NCBI GenBank assembly: GCA_965248055.1
Contig: CBDFIJ010000004.1
Location: 2,914,925 to 2,978,924, forward strand
Reading direction: 5' to 3'
Origin: Candidatus Multivoradales bacterium
GTDB taxonomy: Bacteria > Acidobacteriota > Thermoanaerobaculia > Multivoradales > JAHEKO01
DNA: 64,000 nt
The position numbers and the translations under genes are program-made. Below the pieces are notes generated by a model. It ran no database searches and was not told the DNA's origin. It worked only from the letters and a program-made list of their open reading frames with translations. The stretch's first letter is position 1; every line of letters begins with the position of its first letter. Shown here piece by piece: positions 56 to 13,133 of the stretch.

Positions 56-460
56 ATGCGATTCAAATCCGCCATCGACATCTGGCTGTGGGCCATCGTT
101 GTGCTGGAAATATTCTTGGGGATGGTGATGCTGTCGGTCACCTCCTACCTCCCTTGGCGCCAACTGGGGTTGCTGGCCTTAGCGTTTCTCCCAGCGATTG
201 TGATTCCAGTTTGGTTGTTCACTTCCACTTACTATGAAGTCCAAAGTGAGGTCTTGCGCATCAAGTGCGGGCCGTTTTCGTGGCGAATTCCGCTCGATCA
301 AATCCGCTCGGTAAAAAAGAGTCCGTCGCTGTTGTCCGGCCCGGCTCTCTCTCTGCAGCGACTGAAGATTCTCTACAACGACAACAAATCAATCGTGGTG
401 TCGCCGAAGGATCAAGAGAGGTTTCTGGCTGCCATTGGGAAGGATCTTGCGGGCAATTAG
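56..460 (+). CDS. small membrane protein with bacterial PH-like (bPH_2/YdbS-type) domain
   Basis: Two N-terminal TM helices followed by a ~90-aa soluble domain resembling bacterial PH/DUF304 proteins; ATG start. Confidence 0.45.
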   Translation: MRFKSAIDIWLWAIVVLEIFLGMVMLSVTSYLPWRQLGLLALAFLPAIVIPVWLFTSTYYEVQSEVLRIKCGPFSWRIPLDQIRSVKKSPSLLSGPALSLQRLKILYNDNKSIVVSPKDQERFLAAIGKDLAGN

Positions 461-1406
461 ACGGTGGTTTGAAACGTTGGCTGCGCTGGCGATCTTGGCT
501 GTCGGAGGTGCGACGGCACAGGACGCGAAACCGGTCACACCGGCCCCATACGTCGTTGTTCTAGGTGTCGCTCAAGACGGGGCTGTTCCCCAAGCGGGAA
601 CCAAGGACCATTCGGGTTGGCTTGATCAGCAGCATCGGCGCTTTGTCGTCAGTCTCGGGTTGGTTGATCCCGCAACCAATCAGCGATGGCTGTTCGAAGC
701 AACCCCGGATTTCCCGGAACAGTTACACCATCTGGATCAACTTGTGCCGGTGGAAGGTCGCCCAGGCCTGGATGGCATCTTCCTAACCCATGCACATATG
801 GGGCATTACACCGGTCTGATGTACCTCGGCCACGAAGTGATGGGAGCGGAGGGCGTGCCGGTGTATGCCATGCCGCAGATGCAGGACTTCTTGACCACCA
901 ACGGGCCGTGGAGCCAGTTGGTAAAATACAACAACATCGCATTGCGCTCCTTGAAAGACGGTGTCGCAGTGACGCTAAATGAACGCCTCCAAGTCACCCC
1001 GTTTCTGGTTCCGCACCGGCAGGAGTTCTCGGAAGTGGTTGGCTACCGGATTGACGGTCCCGAGAAGTCCGTGCTGTTTATTCCCGACATAGACAGTTGG
1101 CAACAGTTCGATGAGATGGGAACGCGGATTGAAGACCTGATCGCGTCGGTCGACATCGCCTACCTGGACGCCACTTTCTACGATGGCAATGAACTCCCTG
1201 GTCGCGATATGTCCGGCTTTCCCCATCCGTTTATCGTTCGCAGTATGGAACGGTTTGCCGATCTGCCGACGGAGGAAAAGGCGAAGGTGCGGTTTATTCA
1301 CTTCAACCACAGCAATCCTGTGTTGTGGAACGCTTCTGTCGCTGCTGAGACTGTTCGACAGCAGGGTTTTGCCCTGGCAAGGGCGCGGGACTTGTCGCCA
1401 TTGTGA
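435..1406 (+). CDS. secreted MBL-fold metallo-hydrolase (PqqB/PhnP-like)
   Basis: N-terminal signal peptide (AILAVGGATAQDA); H-x-H-x-G-H motif 'THAHMGHYTGL' typical of metallo-beta-lactamase fold; later Asp/His ligands (DIDSW, HFNH). Confidence 0.6.
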   Translation: MGRILRAIRRWFETLAALAILAVGGATAQDAKPVTPAPYVVVLGVAQDGAVPQAGTKDHSGWLDQQHRRFVVSLGLVDPATNQRWLFEATPDFPEQLHHLDQLVPVEGRPGLDGIFLTHAHMGHYTGLMYLGHEVMGAEGVPVYAMPQMQDFLTTNGPWSQLVKYNNIALRSLKDGVAVTLNERLQVTPFLVPHRQEFSEVVGYRIDGPEKSVLFIPDIDSWQQFDEMGTRIEDLIASVDIAYLDATFYDGNELPGRDMSGFPHPFIVRSMERFADLPTEEKAKVRFIHFNHSNPVLWNASVAAETVRQQGFALARARDLSPL

Positions 1407-1942
1407 TCATTGGAAGGAGTTGCCTGGGGAAAAGGAAGGTTTTCCAAGTTCTCATTGCGCTCGTGGGCGGATTCCTCACTCTCACAGCGTGTACACCGGC
1501 GGTCGTGGTCGGGGCGAGTGTTGCCGCCGGCGTTGTTATTTCCCAGGCTGACCCCTCAGACCGATTGAGTGAATGTCTGTGGTCCACTTCCCAAGAGTTG
1601 GGAGGGCCGTTGGGTCGCTCGATTCAGGGCGACTGCAATCTGAAAGTCAAGAAATCGGCGCTGGTCGTGCTACTTCCGGATATGGCGATCGACGACACCT
1701 CGCTCTTGGCCTTGGGAATATCAGTGGAGGAACTGAGAACCGTGCGAGAGATGGAGCGATATAGCGGTCGTCCTGGAATGGTCATTATCGACGAACGCAA
1801 GAAACGGCATCCGTCGTACAGCGCCCTCACCTTCACAGTAGTCCCCAATGTTTTGGTCTGTAGGCCACAGGATGGCTATGTCCGGTACGTGATCGACTCG
1901 AGTGCCGGTCACCCGACTGTCGTTTCGCTTGGGTGTGAATAG
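1403..1942 (+). CDS. lipoprotein, paralog A of a 3-member local family
   Basis: Lipobox LTLTAC; two conserved Cys pairs; core VVLLP...LALGISVEEL...VLVCRPQDG aligns with ORFs 2282-2815 and 4385-4879. Confidence 0.55.
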   Translation: MIIGRSCLGKRKVFQVLIALVGGFLTLTACTPAVVVGASVAAGVVISQADPSDRLSECLWSTSQELGGPLGRSIQGDCNLKVKKSALVVLLPDMAIDDTSLLALGISVEELRTVREMERYSGRPGMVIIDERKKRHPSYSALTFTVVPNVLVCRPQDGYVRYVIDSSAGHPTVVSLGCE

Positions 1943-1959
1943 TTCAAGAGGAGAAACTT

Positions 1960-2253
1960 GTGTTGGCGAAAACTTTCACGGTCATCATTGTTTCGGTGTT
2001 TGCCCTGACAGAAAAGTTGACCGCGGGTTCAGAGCAACTCACCGCCACATTTATCGGCAATGAAGCCTTCAAGATCACCGACCGGGAGGTAACCTTGTTC
2101 ACCGATTTCCCCTACCAATCGGGCGCCTACGGTTACATGGAGTACGACGAGGCGCTGGTCAAACGGACTCCAAATTCATACTGCCTATTCAGCCACGGTC
2201 ACCGGGATCACTTCGCTGCTGAGCTGGTTGGCCAAGTGGGGTGCTGTTGTTGA
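1960..2253 (+). pseudogene. truncated N-terminal fragment of MBL-fold hydrolase (UPF0173/YtkL-like)
   Basis: GTG start with AGGAGA RBS; 'YCLFSHGHRDHF' = HxHxDH motif but ORF ends after 97 aa, no C-terminal metal ligands; next gene starts 30 bp later. Confidence 0.4.
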
Positions 2254-2281
2254 TAGATTGAGAGATCCAGGAGTAACGACT

Positions 2282-2815
2282 ATGACGCAGAAGCACTCGA
2301 AGCCGGGGTCGAACAGAGGTGTCGTGATGTTTATCTTGGTGGCCTTGCTAACAACGGGATGCAGCACCAGGTCGGCCGTCGCACTTGGGGCAGCGGTCAT
2401 TACGTCTTGGCCAGATGCCAGTGACAAACTGGGCGGATGCCTCCTGAAGGGTGCTGGCGATCTTGAGCGATCCGCAGATAGCGAGAGAGTATTGTCGTGT
2501 CCAATGCCGAACGCAGATGGCGGTTTGATTGTGCTCTTTCCAACCGCACCTACCTCGACCAGTCAACTGGAAGCGCTCGGGGTCACGCGGCGCGAGATCG
2601 ACGCGGTTAACTCACTTCAGTTTGATATCGGGCCGTACCAACGGATCAACTTCGTACCCAACGACCCAAAAACACGCCCTCAGAGAACCTCGCTTCGATA
2701 TCAATGGTTGGATGTTAAGGATCTATGGGTGTGCCGCCCCGCGTCCGGACCGATCGAGTTCGCGCTCAGCAAGAGTGGTTCCAAAGTTATGGTGTCTGGC
2801 CGGACCTGTTCGTGA
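2282..2815 (+). CDS. lipoprotein, paralog B
   Basis: Signal peptide + lipobox LLTTGC (start taken at ATG 2282); conserved core IVLFPTAP..SQLEALGVTRREIDAVN...QRINFVPNDPK...LWVCRPASGP shared with paralogs A and C. Confidence 0.55.
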   Translation: MTQKHSKPGSNRGVVMFILVALLTTGCSTRSAVALGAAVITSWPDASDKLGGCLLKGAGDLERSADSERVLSCPMPNADGGLIVLFPTAPTSTSQLEALGVTRREIDAVNSLQFDIGPYQRINFVPNDPKTRPQRTSLRYQWLDVKDLWVCRPASGPIEFALSKSGSKVMVSGRTCS

Positions 2816-2821
2816 CAGCGA

Positions 2822-3352
2822 GTGATAGCTGCCGCTAACAAAGAGATGACTTCCAAACTCCAGTTTGAGCCACGCGACCCTGCCTTCGTCGACAAGGTTC
2901 GAGAGAGCTTTGCCCAGCAGGAGTTCATGGCTACCCTGGGGGCTGAGATCAGCGATATTCAGCCCGGCTCGGTACGCATCGAGATGCCGTACTCCGAGCG
3001 TTTCACCCAACAGCATCAGTACATGCATGCCGCTGCCATTGCGGCGATTGCCGACAGTGCCTGTGGCTATGCTGCCTTCACCCTCACGCCACCCGGTACC
3101 GACGTACTGTCGATTGAGTACAAGGTCAACCTACTGGCCCCCGCGCGCGGCGACAATTTCTATGCGATTGCTCGGGTGGTGAAGTCGGGTCGAACCATTA
3201 CGGTTTGCGATGCTGATGTCTACGCGGTACGAGACCAGGGTGAGAAACTGGTCGCTTCTTTGACTGCTACGATCATGTCGCTCCCCAGTCGAGACCACTC
3301 CGCTTCGCGCAAGTCGCGTTCAGCGCGGTGTGGTCTCGAAACACGGACGTAG
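2822..3352 (+). CDS. PaaI/4HBT-type hotdog-fold thioesterase
   Basis: Motifs 'HGAAIAAIADSACGYA' and 'EYKVNLLAPARGDNFYAIARVVKSGRTITVCDADV' typical of PaaI thioesterase family. Confidence 0.7.
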   Translation: MIAAANKEMTSKLQFEPRDPAFVDKVRESFAQQEFMATLGAEISDIQPGSVRIEMPYSERFTQQHQYMHAAAIAAIADSACGYAAFTLTPPGTDVLSIEYKVNLLAPARGDNFYAIARVVKSGRTITVCDADVYAVRDQGEKLVASLTATIMSLPSRDHSASRKSRSARCGLETRT

Positions 3353-3643
3353 CCGTTGGGCGATCTCGATATGAAAGGCAAGTTTCTGTCCTTGAACAAA
3401 GCCCTCGTTCCAGTCTGTGTTCTCACCGGAAGGCGGTTGTTTCAGGTGGCTGTATTCGCTGGCGGTTAGTAACCTGTCGCAATCGCGCGGCCAGGACTGG
3501 GTGCGAGAGGCGCGAATGCCCGCGCCGAATCCCAACAAGAACTCAGGCTGGTCGTCGAGACGGTCGAGGCTACGAGCGGCTTCGTCGGTCGCGGCATCGA
3601 TTGCTTCCGCGATCTCTACATTGAACTGTTCGACTCTCCAGAT

Positions 3644-4201
3644 CTAGTACTCGGCCAAGGTCGCTTCATAGTCTTCCGGGTATGGATCGTGCTCACGGCC
3701 ATTCCAGGTGCTCGACGCCCGCGCGGCGTGGGCGCTTTCGTAGCGAGCAAAAAGTTCGGTCAACAGCGTCTCGATTTGTGCGTCATCCTTGCGATCGATG
3801 TCGTTGGGGAGTTGAATTCTAAGTTCGACCTTACAATCGAGTTCGTCGAATAGCTCGAAGGGACCTTCCAGCCGTGGAGCCAGTAGCGGTTCATCGAGAT
3901 CGAGCAGTACCTCGATCCGTTTCCGCTCGACTTTGACTTTGGAGACCTGGAACAGCTCACCAGAATCAAACGAGAACTCGCCGTTGGAAGTAGAGCGTTG
4001 ACCGACCACATCGTTGTTGGTGTAGCGATCGCCACAGCCAGATTGCACGTCGATGTTGGTCGTCGCCCAGGCTCCGAGCCATCGGTTGCTAATGTCTCTT
4101 TCGTCCGCATGAATGGAGGGCACTTCGAACAGAAGGGCAGCGGTCAACAGGAGTGCTGCGGGCAATGGTTTGCGACCAACGGTTATGCGTTTCATAGACA
4201 T
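3644..4201 (-). CDS. secreted hypothetical protein
   Basis: Signal peptide (LLLTAALLFEVPSIHA); no recognisable catalytic motifs; acidic C-terminus. Confidence 0.45.
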   Translation of the reverse strand: MSMKRITVGRKPLPAALLLTAALLFEVPSIHADERDISNRWLGAWATTNIDVQSGCGDRYTNNDVVGQRSTSNGEFSFDSGELFQVSKVKVERKRIEVLLDLDEPLLAPRLEGPFELFDELDCKVELRIQLPNDIDRKDDAQIETLLTELFARYESAHAARASSTWNGREHDPYPEDYEATLAEY

Positions 4202-4384
4202 GCTTCCCGGACAAACGGCTGTGAACGGTTGTTGCTACTCAAGAACCCTCGGATCCTCTCATAGTGCGCTACGGATTCTTGATTACCGCGCGAGCGGCAA
4301 GGGTACTCCTGCTTTGTGCTAACCTAGCTCTGTTTTTGACAGTGTCTCTCGGCTTCTGAAGGAGAGCTCTTGGAGGAGTACAGA

Positions 4385-4879
4385 ATGCACAGGCAGCGTG
4401 AATTGCGGAAAGGACCTTACCGTTATTATCTGGGTTGGGCGGTCTTGCTACTGATGATTGGGTCTGTGGGCTGTACCACCGAGATCTACTTGAGCGGTTT
4501 GGGTGCGTGTTTCCGCAACGCGGTGGGGGAACTGAGACGCACCGGTGCTGAGGAAATTCGACGAGAATGCAACACCGGAGCCCGCAGCGGAGCCACGATT
4601 GTGGTCTTTCCCTATGACCCGGTTTCTGCGACACAACTCGGAGAGGCCGGTGTCTCGCGCGAAGACATCAACATCATCAACGACCTACAGAAGCCCAACA
4701 GCCAGCGCCAGCGGATCAACGTCCTGCCGAACAACCCGAAGTCGTCCGGCTGGGACATAAATATTGACGACCGTAAGTTCGACGTGCCTGAACTGATGGT
4801 GTGCAAGACCCCTGCAACCAAGGTCACCATAACTCTGCGACAGGAACACGGGAGGATCGTCTGGCGGGGGATGGAGTGA
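4385..4879 (+). CDS. lipoprotein, paralog C
   Basis: Lipobox MIGSVGC; core 'IVVFPYDPVSATQLGEAGVSREDINIINDLQ...QRINVLPNNPK...LMVCKTPATK' aligns to paralogs A/B. Confidence 0.55.
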   Translation: MHRQRELRKGPYRYYLGWAVLLLMIGSVGCTTEIYLSGLGACFRNAVGELRRTGAEEIRRECNTGARSGATIVVFPYDPVSATQLGEAGVSREDINIINDLQKPNSQRQRINVLPNNPKSSGWDINIDDRKFDVPELMVCKTPATKVTITLRQEHGRIVWRGME

Positions 4880-5018: not shown

Positions 5019-5861
5019 GTGTCGACGCGCCGCCGTTTTCTCCAGGGTTCGCTTGCTACAGCCGTTGCCACAAGTATTGGTGTATTGGCTTACACATTTG
5101 AAGTGGAGCCCGAATGGTTGCAGGTAGTTCGTCGACCGCTACCCATAGAAGGACTTCCGAGCGGGTTAGAAGGGAGATCCCTGGTGCAGCTCAGCGATCT
5201 CCATGTCGGAAAGCGAGTTTCCGACGACTACATACTCAGGACCTTCGAAACCGTTCGTCATTTGAATCCCGACCTAATTGTTTACACCGGGGATTTCACG
5301 AGCTACGAGCCCAGCGGTGTTGAGCACGCGGAATTCATCTACTCGCAGGCTCCGCGCGGGCGCATGGCAACCATTGGCATTCTAGGCAACCATGACTATG
5401 GCCCTAACTGGGCGCATCCGGAAATTGCAGCGCGGTTAGTTGATGTACTTCACGATCATGGGATTCGCATTCTGCGGAATCAGGTGGTGCAGGTCGAAGG
5501 TCTGCAGATTGCCGGGATGGATGATTTGTGGGCTGAAAGATTCGACCCGAAATCGGCGGTTGCCCAATTGCTGCCATCCAGGGCGTCATTGGCGCTGAGC
5601 CACAACCCTGACACTGTCGATCTTGAAGGCTGGGGCGGCTACCGAGGCTGGATCTTGAGCGGTCACACCCACGGTGGACAGTGCAAGGCTCCTTTCCTTC
5701 CCCCTCCGATCTTGCCGGTCAAGAACCGACGGTATACAGCTGGCGAGTTTGACGTGGGCGATGGACGCAGGATTTACATTAGTCGCGGCGTGGGACACTT
5801 AAAGAAGGTACGGTTCAACGTGCGTCCGGAAGTCACACGTTTTGCTTTGCGGAGGGCCTGA
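5019..5861 (+). CDS. TAT-exported calcineurin-like metallophosphoesterase
   Basis: Twin-arginine signal 'RRRFLQGSLATAVA'; GDxxS/GNHDY/GHTHGG metallophosphoesterase motifs. Confidence 0.7.
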   Translation: MSTRRRFLQGSLATAVATSIGVLAYTFEVEPEWLQVVRRPLPIEGLPSGLEGRSLVQLSDLHVGKRVSDDYILRTFETVRHLNPDLIVYTGDFTSYEPSGVEHAEFIYSQAPRGRMATIGILGNHDYGPNWAHPEIAARLVDVLHDHGIRILRNQVVQVEGLQIAGMDDLWAERFDPKSAVAQLLPSRASLALSHNPDTVDLEGWGGYRGWILSGHTHGGQCKAPFLPPPILPVKNRRYTAGEFDVGDGRRIYISRGVGHLKKVRFNVRPEVTRFALRRA

Positions 5862-5868
5862 TCCGGTG

Positions 5869-6552
5869 ATGAAACTAAACGGCGAAGCGTACGCTCGCGA
5901 TGGGTTTCTGGTCACCGATTCATGGGTTAATGAACCTGAGCTGTTCCGTTTTCGCCGTGAAGTGGATCGACTGGCTGCAGATTCTCCAGAGCACGGCGGA
6001 GTGCGAAACGGGCTGGAGAAGTCAGCGATTCTTAGAACCTTCGGAGAGTCCGATCAGATGTTCAGTCTGGCGAGTATGTTTCTGGATCGACCGATCACGC
6101 TGACGCGCCTGACGATCTTCGACAAGACGCCAAGTGCAAACTGGAAAGTCCCTTTTCACCAGGATCTGACGATTGCAGTAAGTGAAAGACGGCAGACCCC
6201 AGGTTTTGGGCCGTGGTCGATCAAGGAGGGAGTCCATCACGTACAACCTCCGGTTGAGATTCTGGAGAACACGATCTCACTGCGAGTCCACTTAGACGAT
6301 GCAACGGACGACAACGGTGCTCTTCGCGTAATCCCTGAAAGCCATAAGCTGGGACGCCTCACCCGCTCCCAGATTGGGAAAAAGCTCTCTACCGGGAAAT
6401 CGGCCTATTGCTCGGTTCGTGCTGGCGCGGCGATGGCCATGAGTCCTCTATTGCTACATGCCTCATCTGCTGCAACCGTTGCAGGTCATCGAAGGGTTTT
6501 GCACTATGAGTACGTCGGATGTGATTTGCCCAATGGACTCGCATGGGCATGA
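5869..6552 (+). CDS. phytanoyl-CoA dioxygenase (PhyH) family Fe(II)/2OG oxygenase
   Basis: 'PFHQDLT' H-x-D motif and downstream 'GALRVIPESHK' typical of PhyH family; start moved to ATG 5869 to avoid 5' overlap. Confidence 0.6.
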   Translation: MKLNGEAYARDGFLVTDSWVNEPELFRFRREVDRLAADSPEHGGVRNGLEKSAILRTFGESDQMFSLASMFLDRPITLTRLTIFDKTPSANWKVPFHQDLTIAVSERRQTPGFGPWSIKEGVHHVQPPVEILENTISLRVHLDDATDDNGALRVIPESHKLGRLTRSQIGKKLSTGKSAYCSVRAGAAMAMSPLLLHASSAATVAGHRRVLHYEYVGCDLPNGLAWA

Positions 6553-8530: not shown

Positions 8531-11500
8531 CTAGGGCTGCGGCGGAGTGAGGCGCAAAGCCGGGTCCCCTGTGAGACTGTAGGTGGCAGCAATATCTGGG
8601 CTCCCGCCACCAGCTATGAAACTCCTTAACCCGCTAAAGACTGCTTCGCCGAGCGTCGCGTTGTCACCGTTCCAGGCTTCGGGAAGCGTGTAAGTTGCCA
8701 GTAGGTGCGACTGGGCGTGGCGCGAAGCTGCAGTTGCACCGAACGCCGCGACCGATCCACCATCGGGATCGAACAATAGGGATTCTGGAAGCGTCTGGAC
8801 GCCCGGCCAGGTGGTGATATTGACTAGGCATCCAAACGCAAAAAGTATTCCCGGTGACTGGGAGTTCGTCAATTCATCCATGTCTGCGGTAGACAGAATT
8901 GATTCTGCTGCCAGCTGTGTGGCGCCTCCGTGGCCGGAATAAACGAGCGCAAGAGTACCATCATTGATCTGGTCGATGAGCTCAGAGTGAATCTCTCCTG
9001 GGTCGCCGGTTCTACCCAGTAGAAGAAGGTTTCGGTTGAAGTCGTTCGGTGCCCGAGCAGATAGATCGAAGGCCGCAGCGTGATAGTCCCCGGCATGATC
9101 TGGGTTGTCGGCAACGAACGCAATATTGTGCTTCCAGTCGGCCGTAGAGGCTTCGAAGACCTTAAGTTTTTCAACATAGTTGGAAACATCTTCTCTAGAG
9201 TTGGCTGGAATCCTACCAATCAAGAATTCGCTTCCGGGGCTCCCGTCTACGTCGCCGAGGACTGAATCCGAGGCGATGACTTGATTGCCGACGTTCATTA
9301 AATTGGCCGGGATCAGATTGCCTCCCCAACCATTGATATCGCGAAAGTCCCAATGCCCGTCGCCCAATAAGACAACCCAACGCGGCGCTTGCCGAGGTCT
9401 CTCCGCCAGCAAGGTCAAGTACTCTTTGATCATCGATGGGTGGTAGTTCCCGTGGCCGATTTGATCAACAATGTCTTGAAAGAACACAGTGCGTGTTCGG
9501 AGCCCTTGAGATTCACGGTAGCTGGCGAGCTCGGCGGCGCCAACTGTGAGAGTTGGGTCGGTGATCAGCAAGTAATCGATTGGTTTTCGACCGAGGCTAT
9601 TGCGTTTGCCGAGAAGGCGCAGACCAGCGACTTGTTTCCATCCGGTGGTATCGACCATCCAGACTTCGGTCTCGGAGGAGAGTTGGTATTTCGCCTGTAC
9701 TGTGCCGTCGAGGCCAGAGGAAAGACCGATGGCCAACGACCGGGGTACTCCATCTTCCCAGGCGTAAGCGGTAACGGCATCGGAGGTCCAGCCCTTTGTC
9801 AACCCCCGGGTTGGCGCGTTCTTCATCTGCAGAAACCCGTGAACTGGTTGCAGCGGCCGTTGATAGGTCAGGTCGAATGAGTCGATGAAGGCGTACCCTT
9901 GTTCAGCTCTAAATTCGATGTTGTTGGTTCCGTCAACCAAGACCCTGGCAGGAACCATCAGCACGGTGTCGAATCTCTCTGATTCATAAGACACCGCGTT
10001 CCCCAGACGATGCCCATTGACTTTGATTTCGAACGAGGTGCCGCCTGTGTTGGCTAAGGGACTGTAAGCCTTCACGGAGAGTCGGGCAGACTTTTCAGCT
10101 ATCACTCCAGGAGTCAAAAAACTCACCGTCGTACGGTCGTCACTGCCACCAGCAATCACGTACTTCCAGTACCAAAAATCATCGGTGGGGGAACTCGCCA
10201 ACCACAGAGTCGCAAAGCTGTCTTTCTCAAATCGCTGATGGTGAGTGTAGGTATCATTTTCTGCAGAAAGAGGTGAATTGCTGGAATCGCGTTCCATGAC
10301 AACGCCAGACTTCCACTCTGCGACCAAGGTCCAGGAGTCGAGGTAGGGTGGCAAAGAATCGCGGACCAAGAAACGAACCGTGCCTTTGGAAGCATCGATG
10401 GGGATGTCGTTTCCGTTGAGTGTTAGCCGAAACTTTCCATTTCGCACCTTTCTCCCGACCGCTTCGCGGGACTCTCCAAGCGCGGTCGCCAGTTCGTCGA
10501 GAGTTAGCTCGTAGGGCCCGGGTCCGGGAACCACGACTCCAATTGGTCTCAGTTGAGGTGTGGGCCTAGGCGGGCGCTCTCGAAGTGGTTGCCTATCCCC
10601 GCCGATTAGCTCGGGCGGTAAGGCGGCCCTCGTTGCGCGCTTAGAGCCAATTTTTTGGCGCGGTGCTCGAAGCCCCCCAGCACGCCCAGGTACTGGCCGA
10701 ACTTGAGTACGCCGAACTGGCTGGTTCAGATCCAATCTACCCAGTTCGCGAATCAGACCATGGGCGTCGACTTCCACAACTCTATATTGGGTGCTTCGGT
10801 GTTTACTTTGATCAAACACCGTGTAGCGGCCACCTTCCGATCCTTTGGCGTTGACGATTCCGGGATGAACGGGGACCCATTTTCCGCCCTGCTGCGCTTG
10901 CACCTTGAACCCCAGACTGCCGATCTCACCAACGGTTTCCCAACTGATCCATTTACCCTCCCGGCTGTCAATTGCGGTGAAATTCACTACCGATGCATAG
11001 TTGGGAACAATATTGAGATCGCAGGCGATAGAGGACTGTGCGGAGGTCACACTCGGGGCGACCAGTGGGAGAGTCGGATAGAAAACGGGTGTTACCGAGA
11101 GGGAGGCGTCGGTTGAATTGACTTGATAATCAAAAGTCATGGTGTCTGTTTCGCTGCTGTCAATGCGACCTGGCACACCGGAGAGGCCGGGCTTCCAACT
11201 CTCGTCGGTGTTGGCGAGGGTTTGATCACCGGCGCTGCCGCCACCATAGGCGACGCCGGTGAATATGCCTGCTACGCTGGCGTCATCGCCGACTTCAAGT
11301 TGCCAGAACTGCCCCGCCCCCACTCCGGTGTTGTTGTAGGTCAACGAGCAAGAGGCTGTTTGTCCCAACACAGAGATCAGGCTGGGTGTACAGGTACACG
11401 AAAGCTGAATATCCGGTACTGAGATGTTGGATTCCACCAATGAACGCTTGCATTTAGAACCATTGAAATCGTCAATGTCTTGTAAGACGTCAGTTCCGTC

Positions 11501-12049
11501 GCAGACGATGGTGTTTTTTGCTTGGCCCCAGGAGGTGATGGTGTCGATATTAACCGTTCCATCTCCATTGCTATCCGAGCAGGGTAGGGTCACTGCAGTT
11601 GGAATTACATAGGTCTCGGATGTTGAAGACGTGACGTTGCCACAAAGGTCACCATCACTGTTTGGATAGTTGGCCGCTGGCCGCAAGTACTCTCGCATGC
11701 AACCGGTCGCCAAAGCGTCGTCGGGGTCAGAAATGGGTATAAATAGACCGATGTCATATCGGATGGAGGCATTAGTTTCTATTTCAGCGCCGAGGCTTAC
11801 TGCGGTGAACGTATCCCCTGGCCCAAAGCACCCATCCAGCAAGGTTGTGGCTTGATAGAAGGCTGCACTGGTGTCGTTGGCAGTGCAATTGAGATCTGGC
11901 GGTGGGCAATTGCAGTCCGGGTCTGCAAAATCCACCAGGGTGTCGCTGTCATTATCAATATTGTCCTGACACGCGAATTCGTCGGCAAGAAGTCGTGGCC
12001 CGACGACAATTACACTCAGCAACGAAACGAACAAGAATATCGATCTCAT
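8531..12049 (-). CDS. 1172-aa secreted protein with C-terminal peptidase C25 (gingipain-like) domain
   Basis: Signal peptide; N-terminal Cys/Asp-rich 'DNDSDTLVDFADPDC' Ca-binding (TSP3-like) repeats; C-terminal 330 aa with 'YLLITD...ELASYRESQG', 'LVYSGHGG' (His) and 'FAFGCL' (Cys) = C25 catalytic dyad. Confidence 0.65.
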   Translation of the reverse strand: MRSIFLFVSLLSVIVVGPRLLADEFACQDNIDNDSDTLVDFADPDCNCPPPDLNCTANDTSAAFYQATTLLDGCFGPGDTFTAVSLGAEIETNASIRYDIGLFIPISDPDDALATGCMREYLRPAANYPNSDGDLCGNVTSSTSETYVIPTAVTLPCSDSNGDGTVNIDTITSWGQAKNTIVCDGTDVLQDIDDFNGSKCKRSLVESNISVPDIQLSCTCTPSLISVLGQTASCSLTYNNTGVGAGQFWQLEVGDDASVAGIFTGVAYGGGSAGDQTLANTDESWKPGLSGVPGRIDSSETDTMTFDYQVNSTDASLSVTPVFYPTLPLVAPSVTSAQSSIACDLNIVPNYASVVNFTAIDSREGKWISWETVGEIGSLGFKVQAQQGGKWVPVHPGIVNAKGSEGGRYTVFDQSKHRSTQYRVVEVDAHGLIRELGRLDLNQPVRRTQVRPVPGRAGGLRAPRQKIGSKRATRAALPPELIGGDRQPLRERPPRPTPQLRPIGVVVPGPGPYELTLDELATALGESREAVGRKVRNGKFRLTLNGNDIPIDASKGTVRFLVRDSLPPYLDSWTLVAEWKSGVVMERDSSNSPLSAENDTYTHHQRFEKDSFATLWLASSPTDDFWYWKYVIAGGSDDRTTVSFLTPGVIAEKSARLSVKAYSPLANTGGTSFEIKVNGHRLGNAVSYESERFDTVLMVPARVLVDGTNNIEFRAEQGYAFIDSFDLTYQRPLQPVHGFLQMKNAPTRGLTKGWTSDAVTAYAWEDGVPRSLAIGLSSGLDGTVQAKYQLSSETEVWMVDTTGWKQVAGLRLLGKRNSLGRKPIDYLLITDPTLTVGAAELASYRESQGLRTRTVFFQDIVDQIGHGNYHPSMIKEYLTLLAERPRQAPRWVVLLGDGHWDFRDINGWGGNLIPANLMNVGNQVIASDSVLGDVDGSPGSEFLIGRIPANSREDVSNYVEKLKVFEASTADWKHNIAFVADNPDHAGDYHAAAFDLSARAPNDFNRNLLLLGRTGDPGEIHSELIDQINDGTLALVYSGHGGATQLAAESILSTADMDELTNSQSPGILFAFGCLVNITTWPGVQTLPESLLFDPDGGSVAAFGATAASRHAQSHLLATYTLPEAWNGDNATLGEAVFSGLRSFIAGGGSPDIAATYSLTGDPALRLTPPQP

Positions 12050-12143: not shown

Positions 12144-13133
12144 TCAAGGAAATGTATGCGTCCATGACATTTGGCACTGATCGGTATGTTCAGCTACGTA
12201 TTGTAGCGGTGGTCTTTGTCGGTGGCTCCAGTGGGGCCTTTCGGCGTTAAACCAGAGCATCCAGTCGAAGAGTTTTTGGTTGAAAGCTTGGAGGTCAGTG
12301 AAGAGCAAGTCTTCGTTGTAGTCAACGAAGACTTGCTCTTGGATGGTTCGATTGAATCTCTCGGCTTGGGCGTTCATCTTCGGGCACCTGGGGTAGGTGT
12401 ACCAGCGTTTGATTCCAGCCTCAGCAGCTTTCTTGTCGAAGGCTCCTTGAAACTCACTACCGTTGTCTGAGAGCACGGTAGTAACAGCAAATGGCAAGAC
12501 ATCAAGGCTCAGGTCCAGAAAGCGCGCTGCCGTGCTCGAGGTGTGGGAGTTGGTGGCTATTGCCAGACTCATGCTGCTGGCGGCATCGGTCAGAGTGATC
12601 AAGTACCGGCGTTGGCCATCACAGAATCGCTCGATGGTATCTACTGCCACCCACTGACCAGGCGATCAATCCTTTGAGGCACCAAGCGCATCTTGTCGGG
12701 AGCATCGCCAATGATGCGGCCGATGGTGCTCACCGAGGGGCAGGTAATTCCCCTTACTTCACACCAGGGTTTCAACAGCGGATAGATCTTGTCCTTGCCA
12801 AGATTGGGCTCTTTGACCCGCAATCGACCGATCTCAGAGACCACCTCAGCTGGCCACTTGCGCCGTCTTCTTTTCTTCGGAGCTGTTGATTGAGGGTATT
12901 AGAGAGCTTAGCTCTCCTTTGCACCTACCAAGACGAGACTTCCAGCGGTACAGAGTCCTCCGGCTGACCGAAAATGCATCGATCGCTGCATCGATCCCAT
13001 GCTCCTGCCAGAATCTCAATGCTCGGATACGTTTCTCAGCGCTATCTTGGGTCATGACCCAAGATACCCCTAGATGACGAAGATGTCCCAGGCCTTGGAA
13101 ACGCCCTCTGATCAACCTCATGCTCATCGACAC
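12144..13133 (-). mobile_element. degraded IS481-family transposase (3 ORF fragments: HTH + rve integrase core)
   Basis: N-terminal HTH fragment (12846-13133), middle fragment (12641-12844) and DDE/rve core (12144-12650, 'LSDNGSEF...AERFNRT') in different frames = frameshifted pseudogene. Confidence 0.6.

Follow-up and report, generated by a model that had tools for sequence, protein, structure and literature searches.

A three-copy locus of a rare, uncurated bacterial lipoprotein family in Candidatus Multivoradales

Why does one acidobacterial genome carry three lipoprotein genes of an unrecognized kind within 3.5 kb, and did they arise by recent local expansion? The genes, here called A, B, and C, lie in the first 5 kb of a 64,000-nucleotide (nt) stretch of a Candidatus Multivoradales bacterium (contig CBDFIJ010000004.1, positions 2,914,925 to 2,978,924; hereafter, the window). 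An earlier reading of the letters alone (the sequence-only reading) took them for a locally expanding envelope protein family, possibly inhibitor/immunity-like or receptor-like. Our analysis lends good support to another view, that A, B, and C are paralogs that diverged long ago within a rare family of ~150-aa bacterial lipoproteins that no curated resource covers. From the sequence comparisons below, the copies are old, and the locus that they occupy is rearranged yet largely conserved; they are not an accessory family in current expansion.

Paralogy of A, B, and C and the family they belong to

The three open reading frames (ORFs; Table 1) proved to be true paralogs, as the sequence-only reading had proposed. 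BLASTP aligned A with B at 26% identity over 170 aa (E 4e-11), B with C at 31% over 124 aa (E 1e-21), and A with C at 21% over 107 aa (E 5e-6). These alignments fall in the mature region, and the shared blocks, which had been quoted approximately correctly, persist when the alignment begins at the first Cys; the similarity is thus not confined to the signal peptide. We also built an independent profile from 20 metagenomic relatives and zero window sequences and searched it against 1993 ORFs of at least 60 aa from the window and loci L001-L011. Among the window ORFs, only A, B, and C matched, with 60-71 bits each and across most of the ~152 positions of the hidden Markov model (HMM): B at E 6e-21 (positions 8-150), A at E 7e-19 (12-151), and C at E 3e-17 (29-147).

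At the DNA level, the sole similarity among the copies was a 33-nt block, 79% identical between B (2638-2670) and C (4708-4740), which encodes QRINFVPNDPK in B and QRINVLPNNPK in C. With no other DNA repeat between the copies, we rejected a recent duplication. Because this one block and 21-31% amino acid identity are all that the copies share, we consider them old, and the description "locally expanding" does not fit them. A neighbor-joining tree paired B with a metagenomic homolog, P0004, at 80% bootstrap support, and C joined this pair at just 49%. A clade of C with P0006-P0010 and P0014, when tested, was supported at 4%. A, the most divergent copy, formed an unstable long branch; it shares with B and P0004 both a hydrophobic insert behind the lipobox and a fourth Cys.

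How widespread is the family? A word-indexed search of 5.8 billion proteins returned only A, B, C, and P0004, and a full HMMER scan of 1.84 billion cluster representatives (E<=1e-3) gave 35 matches. About 30 of the 35 are ~150-aa proteins with a lipobox (clusters at 50% identity; P0004, P0006-P0045). The top HMMER match, P0005 (2359 aa, 42 stretches), was discarded as a translated tandem repeat, and P0034 was discarded as a repeat protein. A metagenome scan for family loci added 12 short loci. The distribution is rare, and it reaches beyond Multivoradales to include a metagenome-assembled genome (MAG) from the Deltaproteobacteria; with ~30 clusters found elsewhere, a restriction to this lineage, which the sequence-only reading had raised, did not hold.

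The family alignment displays the lipobox Cys, the motif DPAVRLAxC at the start of a helix, a second Cys ~20 residues on, and further conserved blocks in a VVLxP strand, LxxAGL, IYVIP, and a PSRTTxQ motif. Since the columns that are invariant or nearly so hold Cys, Pro, Leu, and Gly, and no catalytic-type residue is conserved, nothing in the family looks catalytic. The PSRTT(Y/S)Q motif failed when looked for in the window copies: B has a partial PQRTSLR, A has PSYSALT, and C has GWDINID. By this motif, the window copies are divergent members of the family.

The sequence-only reading did not recognize the family, and neither did the curated resources. Pfam-A, NCBIfam, PADLOC, and PHROGs gave nothing better than E 0.03 for A, B, and C, and Pfam found no recurring family among 32 family members. 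Profiles of Protein Data Bank (PDB) sequences, searched with 4- and 32-sequence alignments, returned only noise, mostly designed proteins. No well-characterized lipoprotein family could therefore be assigned.

Lipid anchor, cysteines, and predicted fold

A, B, and C each begin with a positively charged n-region (3-5 Lys/Arg before the h-region), a hydrophobic h-region, and a lipobox (Table 1), in agreement with the signal peptides and lipobox Cys previously read from the sequence. The lipobox Cys column is kept across all full-length family members. We infer that each of the three proteins is exported by its lipobox signal peptide and acylated on the lipobox Cys. At the translation starts, B has a clear Shine-Dalgarno sequence, AGGAG, 8 nt 5' of its ATG, and C has another, GGAGGAG, 6 nt 5' of its ATG. 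For A, the GTG start codon and the TGA stop codon of the preceding metallo-beta-lactamase (MBL)-fold gene overlap (GTGA), and a clear Shine-Dalgarno site was not found there.

Two further Cys pairs had been claimed for every copy. This is correct for A and B, with four Cys each, and incorrect for C, which has three (Cys42, Cys62, and Cys140) and lacks the C-terminal fourth Cys. Across the family, the first pair (helix 1 to strand 1) occurs in A, B, C, and nearly all members; P0024 has lost both of its residues together. The third Cys is found only in A, B, C, P0004, P0006, P0007, P0009, P0010, and P0014, and the fourth only in A, B, and P0004. The family-wide pair would join the helix to the first strand as a probable disulfide, and A, B, and P0004 have a second, C-terminal pair.

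A 13-17-residue hydrophobic stretch rich in Ala, Val, and Gly stands right behind the lipobox Cys in A (window 1490-1550), B (window 2369-2410), and the MAG ortholog P0004 (L001 10055-10090), for example, TPAVVVGASVAAGVVIS and SAVALGAAVITSW. It is missing from C and from every other family member, and it was modeled with low pLDDT. This stretch may act as a tether or embed in the membrane as a second segment, and it makes one ask where A, B, and P0004 are actually processed.

We modeled the mature part of B with AlphaFold2. A 4-sequence alignment gave pLDDT 81 and pTM 0.77, and an 18-sequence alignment gave pLDDT 87.4 and pTM 0.80. Both returned an identical topology: an 18-residue N-terminal helix, a beta-hairpin, two short helices, and five more strands. 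The mature part is thus confidently predicted to be one compact alpha/beta domain. Among solved structures, we found no significant structural neighbor for this domain. A test for type IV pilins and pseudopilins also failed: a lipobox is present in place of the class III signal (G/FxxxE), and pilin-fold scores were below significance.

A rearranged but largely conserved locus

P0004 is encoded on a 1.64-Mb contig (locus L001) of a "Candidatus Multivoradales bacterium" MAG (Acidobacteriota, Thermoanaerobaculia), the closest genome found. The order of genes in this MAG is an MBL gene (Lactamase_B_2), one lipoprotein gene, a full-length 243-aa MBL gene (Lactamase_B_3-like), a 120-aa gene on the minus strand, and the hotdog gene, followed by metallophosphoesterase, MOSC, glycosylase, SpoIIE, and nucleoside transporter genes and two Band_7 genes. 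The backbone (MBL, hotdog, metallophosphoesterase, glycosylase, SpoIIE, and nucleoside transporter) is syntenic between the window and the MAG at 64-88% identity (tblastn). The sequence-only reading had judged the first 13 kb of the window to be accessory in character; this is not so for the backbone, and it does apply to the local insertions and replacements that lie on top of it. The genes that interleave with A, B, and C were found as described (Table 1).

Table 1. Lipoprotein genes and their neighbors in the window, in order of position
Feature	Coordinates	Strand	Length	Remarks
Exported MBL-fold protein (Lactamase_B_2, weakly PqqB-like)	435..1406	+		Directly upstream of A; 70% identical to MAG homolog
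Lipoprotein paralog A	1403..1942	+	179 aa	Lipobox LTAC (Cys30); possible tether; Cys58/78 and Cys153/178
Remnant of second exported MBL-fold gene (Lactamase_B_3-like)	1960..2253	+		Residues 6-95 of 243-aa MAG homolog
Lipoprotein paralog B	2282..2815	+	177 aa	Lipobox TTGC (Cys27); Cys53/73 and Cys151/176
Hotdog-fold (4HBT/PaaI-like) thioesterase	2822..3352	+		Profile matches
Protein with N-terminal signal-like sequence	3644..4201	-	185 aa	Transcribed divergently from C
Lipoprotein paralog C	4385..4879	+	164 aa	Lipobox SVGC (Cys30); Cys42/62; single Cys140; no hydrophobic tether
Metallophosphoesterase with TAT signal (YaeI/LpxG-like)	5019..5861	+		139 nt downstream of C; 64% identical to MAG homolog

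The single MAG lipoprotein, P0004, is 53% identical to B and 29% identical to C (tblastn), and B is, by sequence, its ortholog. By position, A occupies the place of the single MAG copy, and B stands directly behind the MBL remnant. A 1.67-kb stretch with the 185-aa gene (minus strand) and C, located between the hotdog and metallophosphoesterase genes, is missing from the MAG. The spacer between the 185-aa gene and C, which are transcribed divergently, measures 183 nt. For the 185-aa protein, we found no match in Pfam, NCBIfam, PADLOC, or PHROGs and no homolog in the MAG locus, in the other family loci, or in any other locus examined. The 185-aa gene and C may have arrived together.

In the history that we propose, the window lineage holds two extra old copies in a rearranged, otherwise conserved locus, one exported MBL gene was truncated beside B, and C arrived, or was retained, along with the oppositely oriented gene for the 185-aa protein with the signal-like N-terminus. 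The truncation is probably recent because the retained part of the MBL gene is still 71% identical to the MAG homolog outside the signal peptide. We asked whether 11 identical nt, shared by the 3' end of the first MBL gene and the truncation region of the second, mark a recombination junction, and rejected this because homology to the full-length MBL runs past them to a "GC" at ~2244. Promoter and terminator scans were uninformative. Homology of the hotdog gene to the MAG begins at the ATG at 2846, which is therefore the likelier start.

Further along the window, a PhyH (phytanoyl-CoA dioxygenase family) gene at 5842-6552 fills the slot of the MAG MOSC-domain gene (L001 13136-13708). Both overlap the end of the metallophosphoesterase gene, which makes this a clean gene replacement at one position. 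On the minus strand, 8531-12049 encodes a 1172-aa secreted protein with a C-terminal Peptidase_C25 (gingipain-like) domain (E 3.5e-59). Three consecutive minus-strand ORFs at 12144-13133 (HTH_23/HTH_28 at 12846-13133, a 67-aa ORF at 12641-12844, and an rve integrase core at 12144-12650) look like one insertion sequence (IS) transposase broken by a stop or frameshift. This IS remnant, ~8 kb from the lipoprotein genes, is missing from the syntenic MAG locus. It and the Peptidase_C25 gene sit between the SpoIIE and nucleoside transporter genes, which are adjacent in the MAG.

Possible roles beside exported hydrolases

Two members of the family are fusions. P0017 (576 aa) and P0046 (579 aa; from the Deltaproteobacteria MAG) lie on different contigs, are 71% identical, and have the same architecture: a lipobox, the family domain, a Pro-rich linker, and an Exo_endo_phos (PF03372; endonuclease/exonuclease/phosphatase, EEP) domain. 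Both are annotated merely as "endonuclease/exonuclease/phosphatase family protein". Many stand-alone EEP homologs of ~390 aa, for example, P0050, carry a lipobox of their own immediately ahead of the catalytic domain. In one lineage, the family domain is thus a membrane-proximal module of an exported metal-dependent phosphoesterase. The gene for P0046 (L035 8001-9740) adjoins a caspase-like Peptidase_C14/Sel1 gene and an ECF sigma factor gene with a Ser/Thr kinase.

Because A overlaps the MBL gene, the MAG arrangement is alike, and the EEP fusion exists, we propose that the domain is a non-catalytic, lipid-anchored binding or tether module that works with exported metallohydrolases; we offer this tentatively, with the chances leaning against it. 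In such a scheme, the domain, which is probably non-catalytic, would serve as a membrane-proximal binding or tethering module. It would act in cis in the two fused relatives, where it lies between the lipid anchor and the EEP phosphoesterase domain, and A, B, and C would act in trans with the adjacent exported metallohydrolases in this lineage. The divergence of the paralogs, including the loss of PSRTT in A and C, would then reflect different partners. Taken as a whole, that is, with the identity of the family, the history of the locus, and this mechanism together, we give our best explanation an even chance of being right.

Several observations weigh against it. Orthologs of the first MBL protein occur at nine further loci (L003-L011; 51-64% identical to the window protein by tblastn) in MAGs labeled Gemmatimonadales, Phycisphaerales, Calditrichaceae, Mariniblastus, Armatimonadota, Chlorobiota, Verrucomicrobiota, Pedosphaera, and Latescibacterota, and no lipoprotein family member was found within 10 kb of these orthologs (0/9). 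Nor was the rest of the window cluster present at any of the nine loci; since the neighborhood of the MBL orthologs is not conserved, a wide horizontal spread of the single MBL gene is suggested. Conversely, the 24 other family loci (105 kb in total, mostly short contigs) each carry one family copy, and none has a homolog of the MBL, hotdog, metallophosphoesterase, PhyH, or 185-aa genes. Their neighbors are heterogeneous (Uma2/DUF1801, Dioxygenase_C, Cupin_7, and PALP/Cupin_2), and a search for a gene neighborhood conserved across the family loci found none. The co-occurrence with MBL-fold hydrolases that the sequence-only reading had put up for checking is thus seen only in the window and the one related MAG. 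The functional part of the explanation draws on two related genomes in which the genes are adjacent and on a single fusion lineage. As to history, the two genomes fit either of two scenarios: A may be the positional ortholog, evolving fast, with B brought in from elsewhere, or A and B may both be ancestral, with one lost in the MAG.

The main rival explanation is that these lipoproteins have a stand-alone role in the envelope, such as ligand binding, envelope structure, or sensing, and that the adjacency to hydrolases is a historical accident of this lineage. The lack of a conserved neighbor over the 24 other loci and the presence of MBL orthologs elsewhere without a lipoprotein both favor it, as does the backbone locus itself, a mixture of unrelated housekeeping-type genes. 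It accounts less well for the overlap of the A start with the MBL stop and for the tight spacing in both genomes (the MAG lipoprotein gene is 22 nt and 38 nt from its two MBL neighbors); moreover, the fusion to an exported EEP domain recurs in two proteins, so the domain can work with a hydrolase. We regard a stand-alone role as possible, if doubtful.

A bolder form of the binding or tether proposal takes the domain to be a new fold and a dedicated lipid-anchored partner (a tether, chaperone, or regulator) of exported metal-dependent phosphoesterases and hydrolases. Each paralog would then serve one enzyme: A the PqqB-like MBL protein, B the second MBL protein, which is now truncated, and C the TAT-exported metallophosphoesterase. 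In the EEP fusions, this partnership would have become covalent. In this strong form, we consider the idea unlikely.

Small, exported proteins with probable disulfides, encoded beside exported hydrolase genes, also bring to mind inhibitor or immunity proteins that neutralize a cognate exported hydrolase or an incoming toxin, with paralogs diversified by an arms race. The strong divergence between the copies, with PSRTT lost in A and C, would agree with this, as would the count of three lipoproteins beside three exported metallohydrolase genes, one of them truncated. However, an inhibitor sits uneasily with a domain that is covalently fused to an enzyme and with neighbors of a housekeeping kind. 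Nor did the inhibitor/immunity or receptor reading find support in a PADLOC match or a fold match to known inhibitors, and we judge an inhibitor or immunity role quite unlikely.

Lastly, at least one copy, above all A, or B next to the truncated MBL gene, could be a leftover of rearrangement that is in decay or unexpressed and has no present function, which we consider very improbable: the locus is clearly rearranged (the truncated MBL gene, the insertions, and the IS remnant 8 kb away), and A is both the most divergent copy and the one without a clear Shine-Dalgarno site, but the three intact ORFs keep the signal peptide, lipobox, structural Cys, and hydrophobic core, each copy scores 60-71 bits across the full length of the independent family profile, and high divergence with an intact frame implies long-term purifying selection.

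Returning to the explanation that we favor, what it describes is a small, new orphan family of lipoproteins that, unusually, has three copies at one locus, an ordinary orphan-family finding that should not surprise a specialist. If true, A, B, and C define a small new family (a candidate domain of unknown function, DUF) of disulfide-stabilized lipoproteins that is sparse in uncultured soil and sediment bacteria and has a confident predicted fold lacking any solved relative. The EEP fusion, together with the adjacency to exported metallohydrolases, hints that Acidobacteriota may have an accessory module for their envelope hydrolases. The locus itself, compared between two genomes, shows cleanly how a conserved operon-like backbone is remodeled: paralogs were gained, one gene was truncated, and a gene pair was inserted.

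How do A, B, and C compare with known systems? Generic bacterial lipoproteins carry a lipobox, of the type described by PROSITE PS51257, and are processed by the Lgt/LspA/Lnt pathway. A, B, and C have the same charged n-region, h-region, and [LVI/ST][ASTV][GAS]C ahead of the mature part, but their mature domain matches none of the curated lipoprotein families. BLIP, MliC/PliC, Ivy, and RcsF are small, exported, disulfide-stabilized proteins, a group that includes lipoproteins as well as proteins whose genes lie near those of hydrolases. A, B, and C resemble them in small size, export, and probable disulfides, and the mature domain showed no significant structural similarity to the inhibitor folds BLIP, MliC/PliC, and Ivy or to RcsF-like lipoproteins. 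Against pilin-like and PAS-like alpha+beta folds (GspK, PilE, and FimT; PAS sensors), scores were below significance, and there was no PAS profile match.

Closer likenesses lie within the family. The N-terminal module of P0017 and P0046 is the identical family domain, directly after the lipobox; there, it is fused by the Pro-rich linker to the PF03372 domain, whereas in the window it is stand-alone, and the window holds no EEP gene. With the uncurated DPAVRLAxC/PSRTT lipoprotein family as a whole, A, B, and C share full-length profile matches, the lipobox, the helix-to-strand Cys pair, and a size of ~150 aa. They differ in that PSRTT is degenerate or missing, and A and B add the putative tether and a second Cys pair. 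Among the loci examined, three copies per locus are unique to the window.

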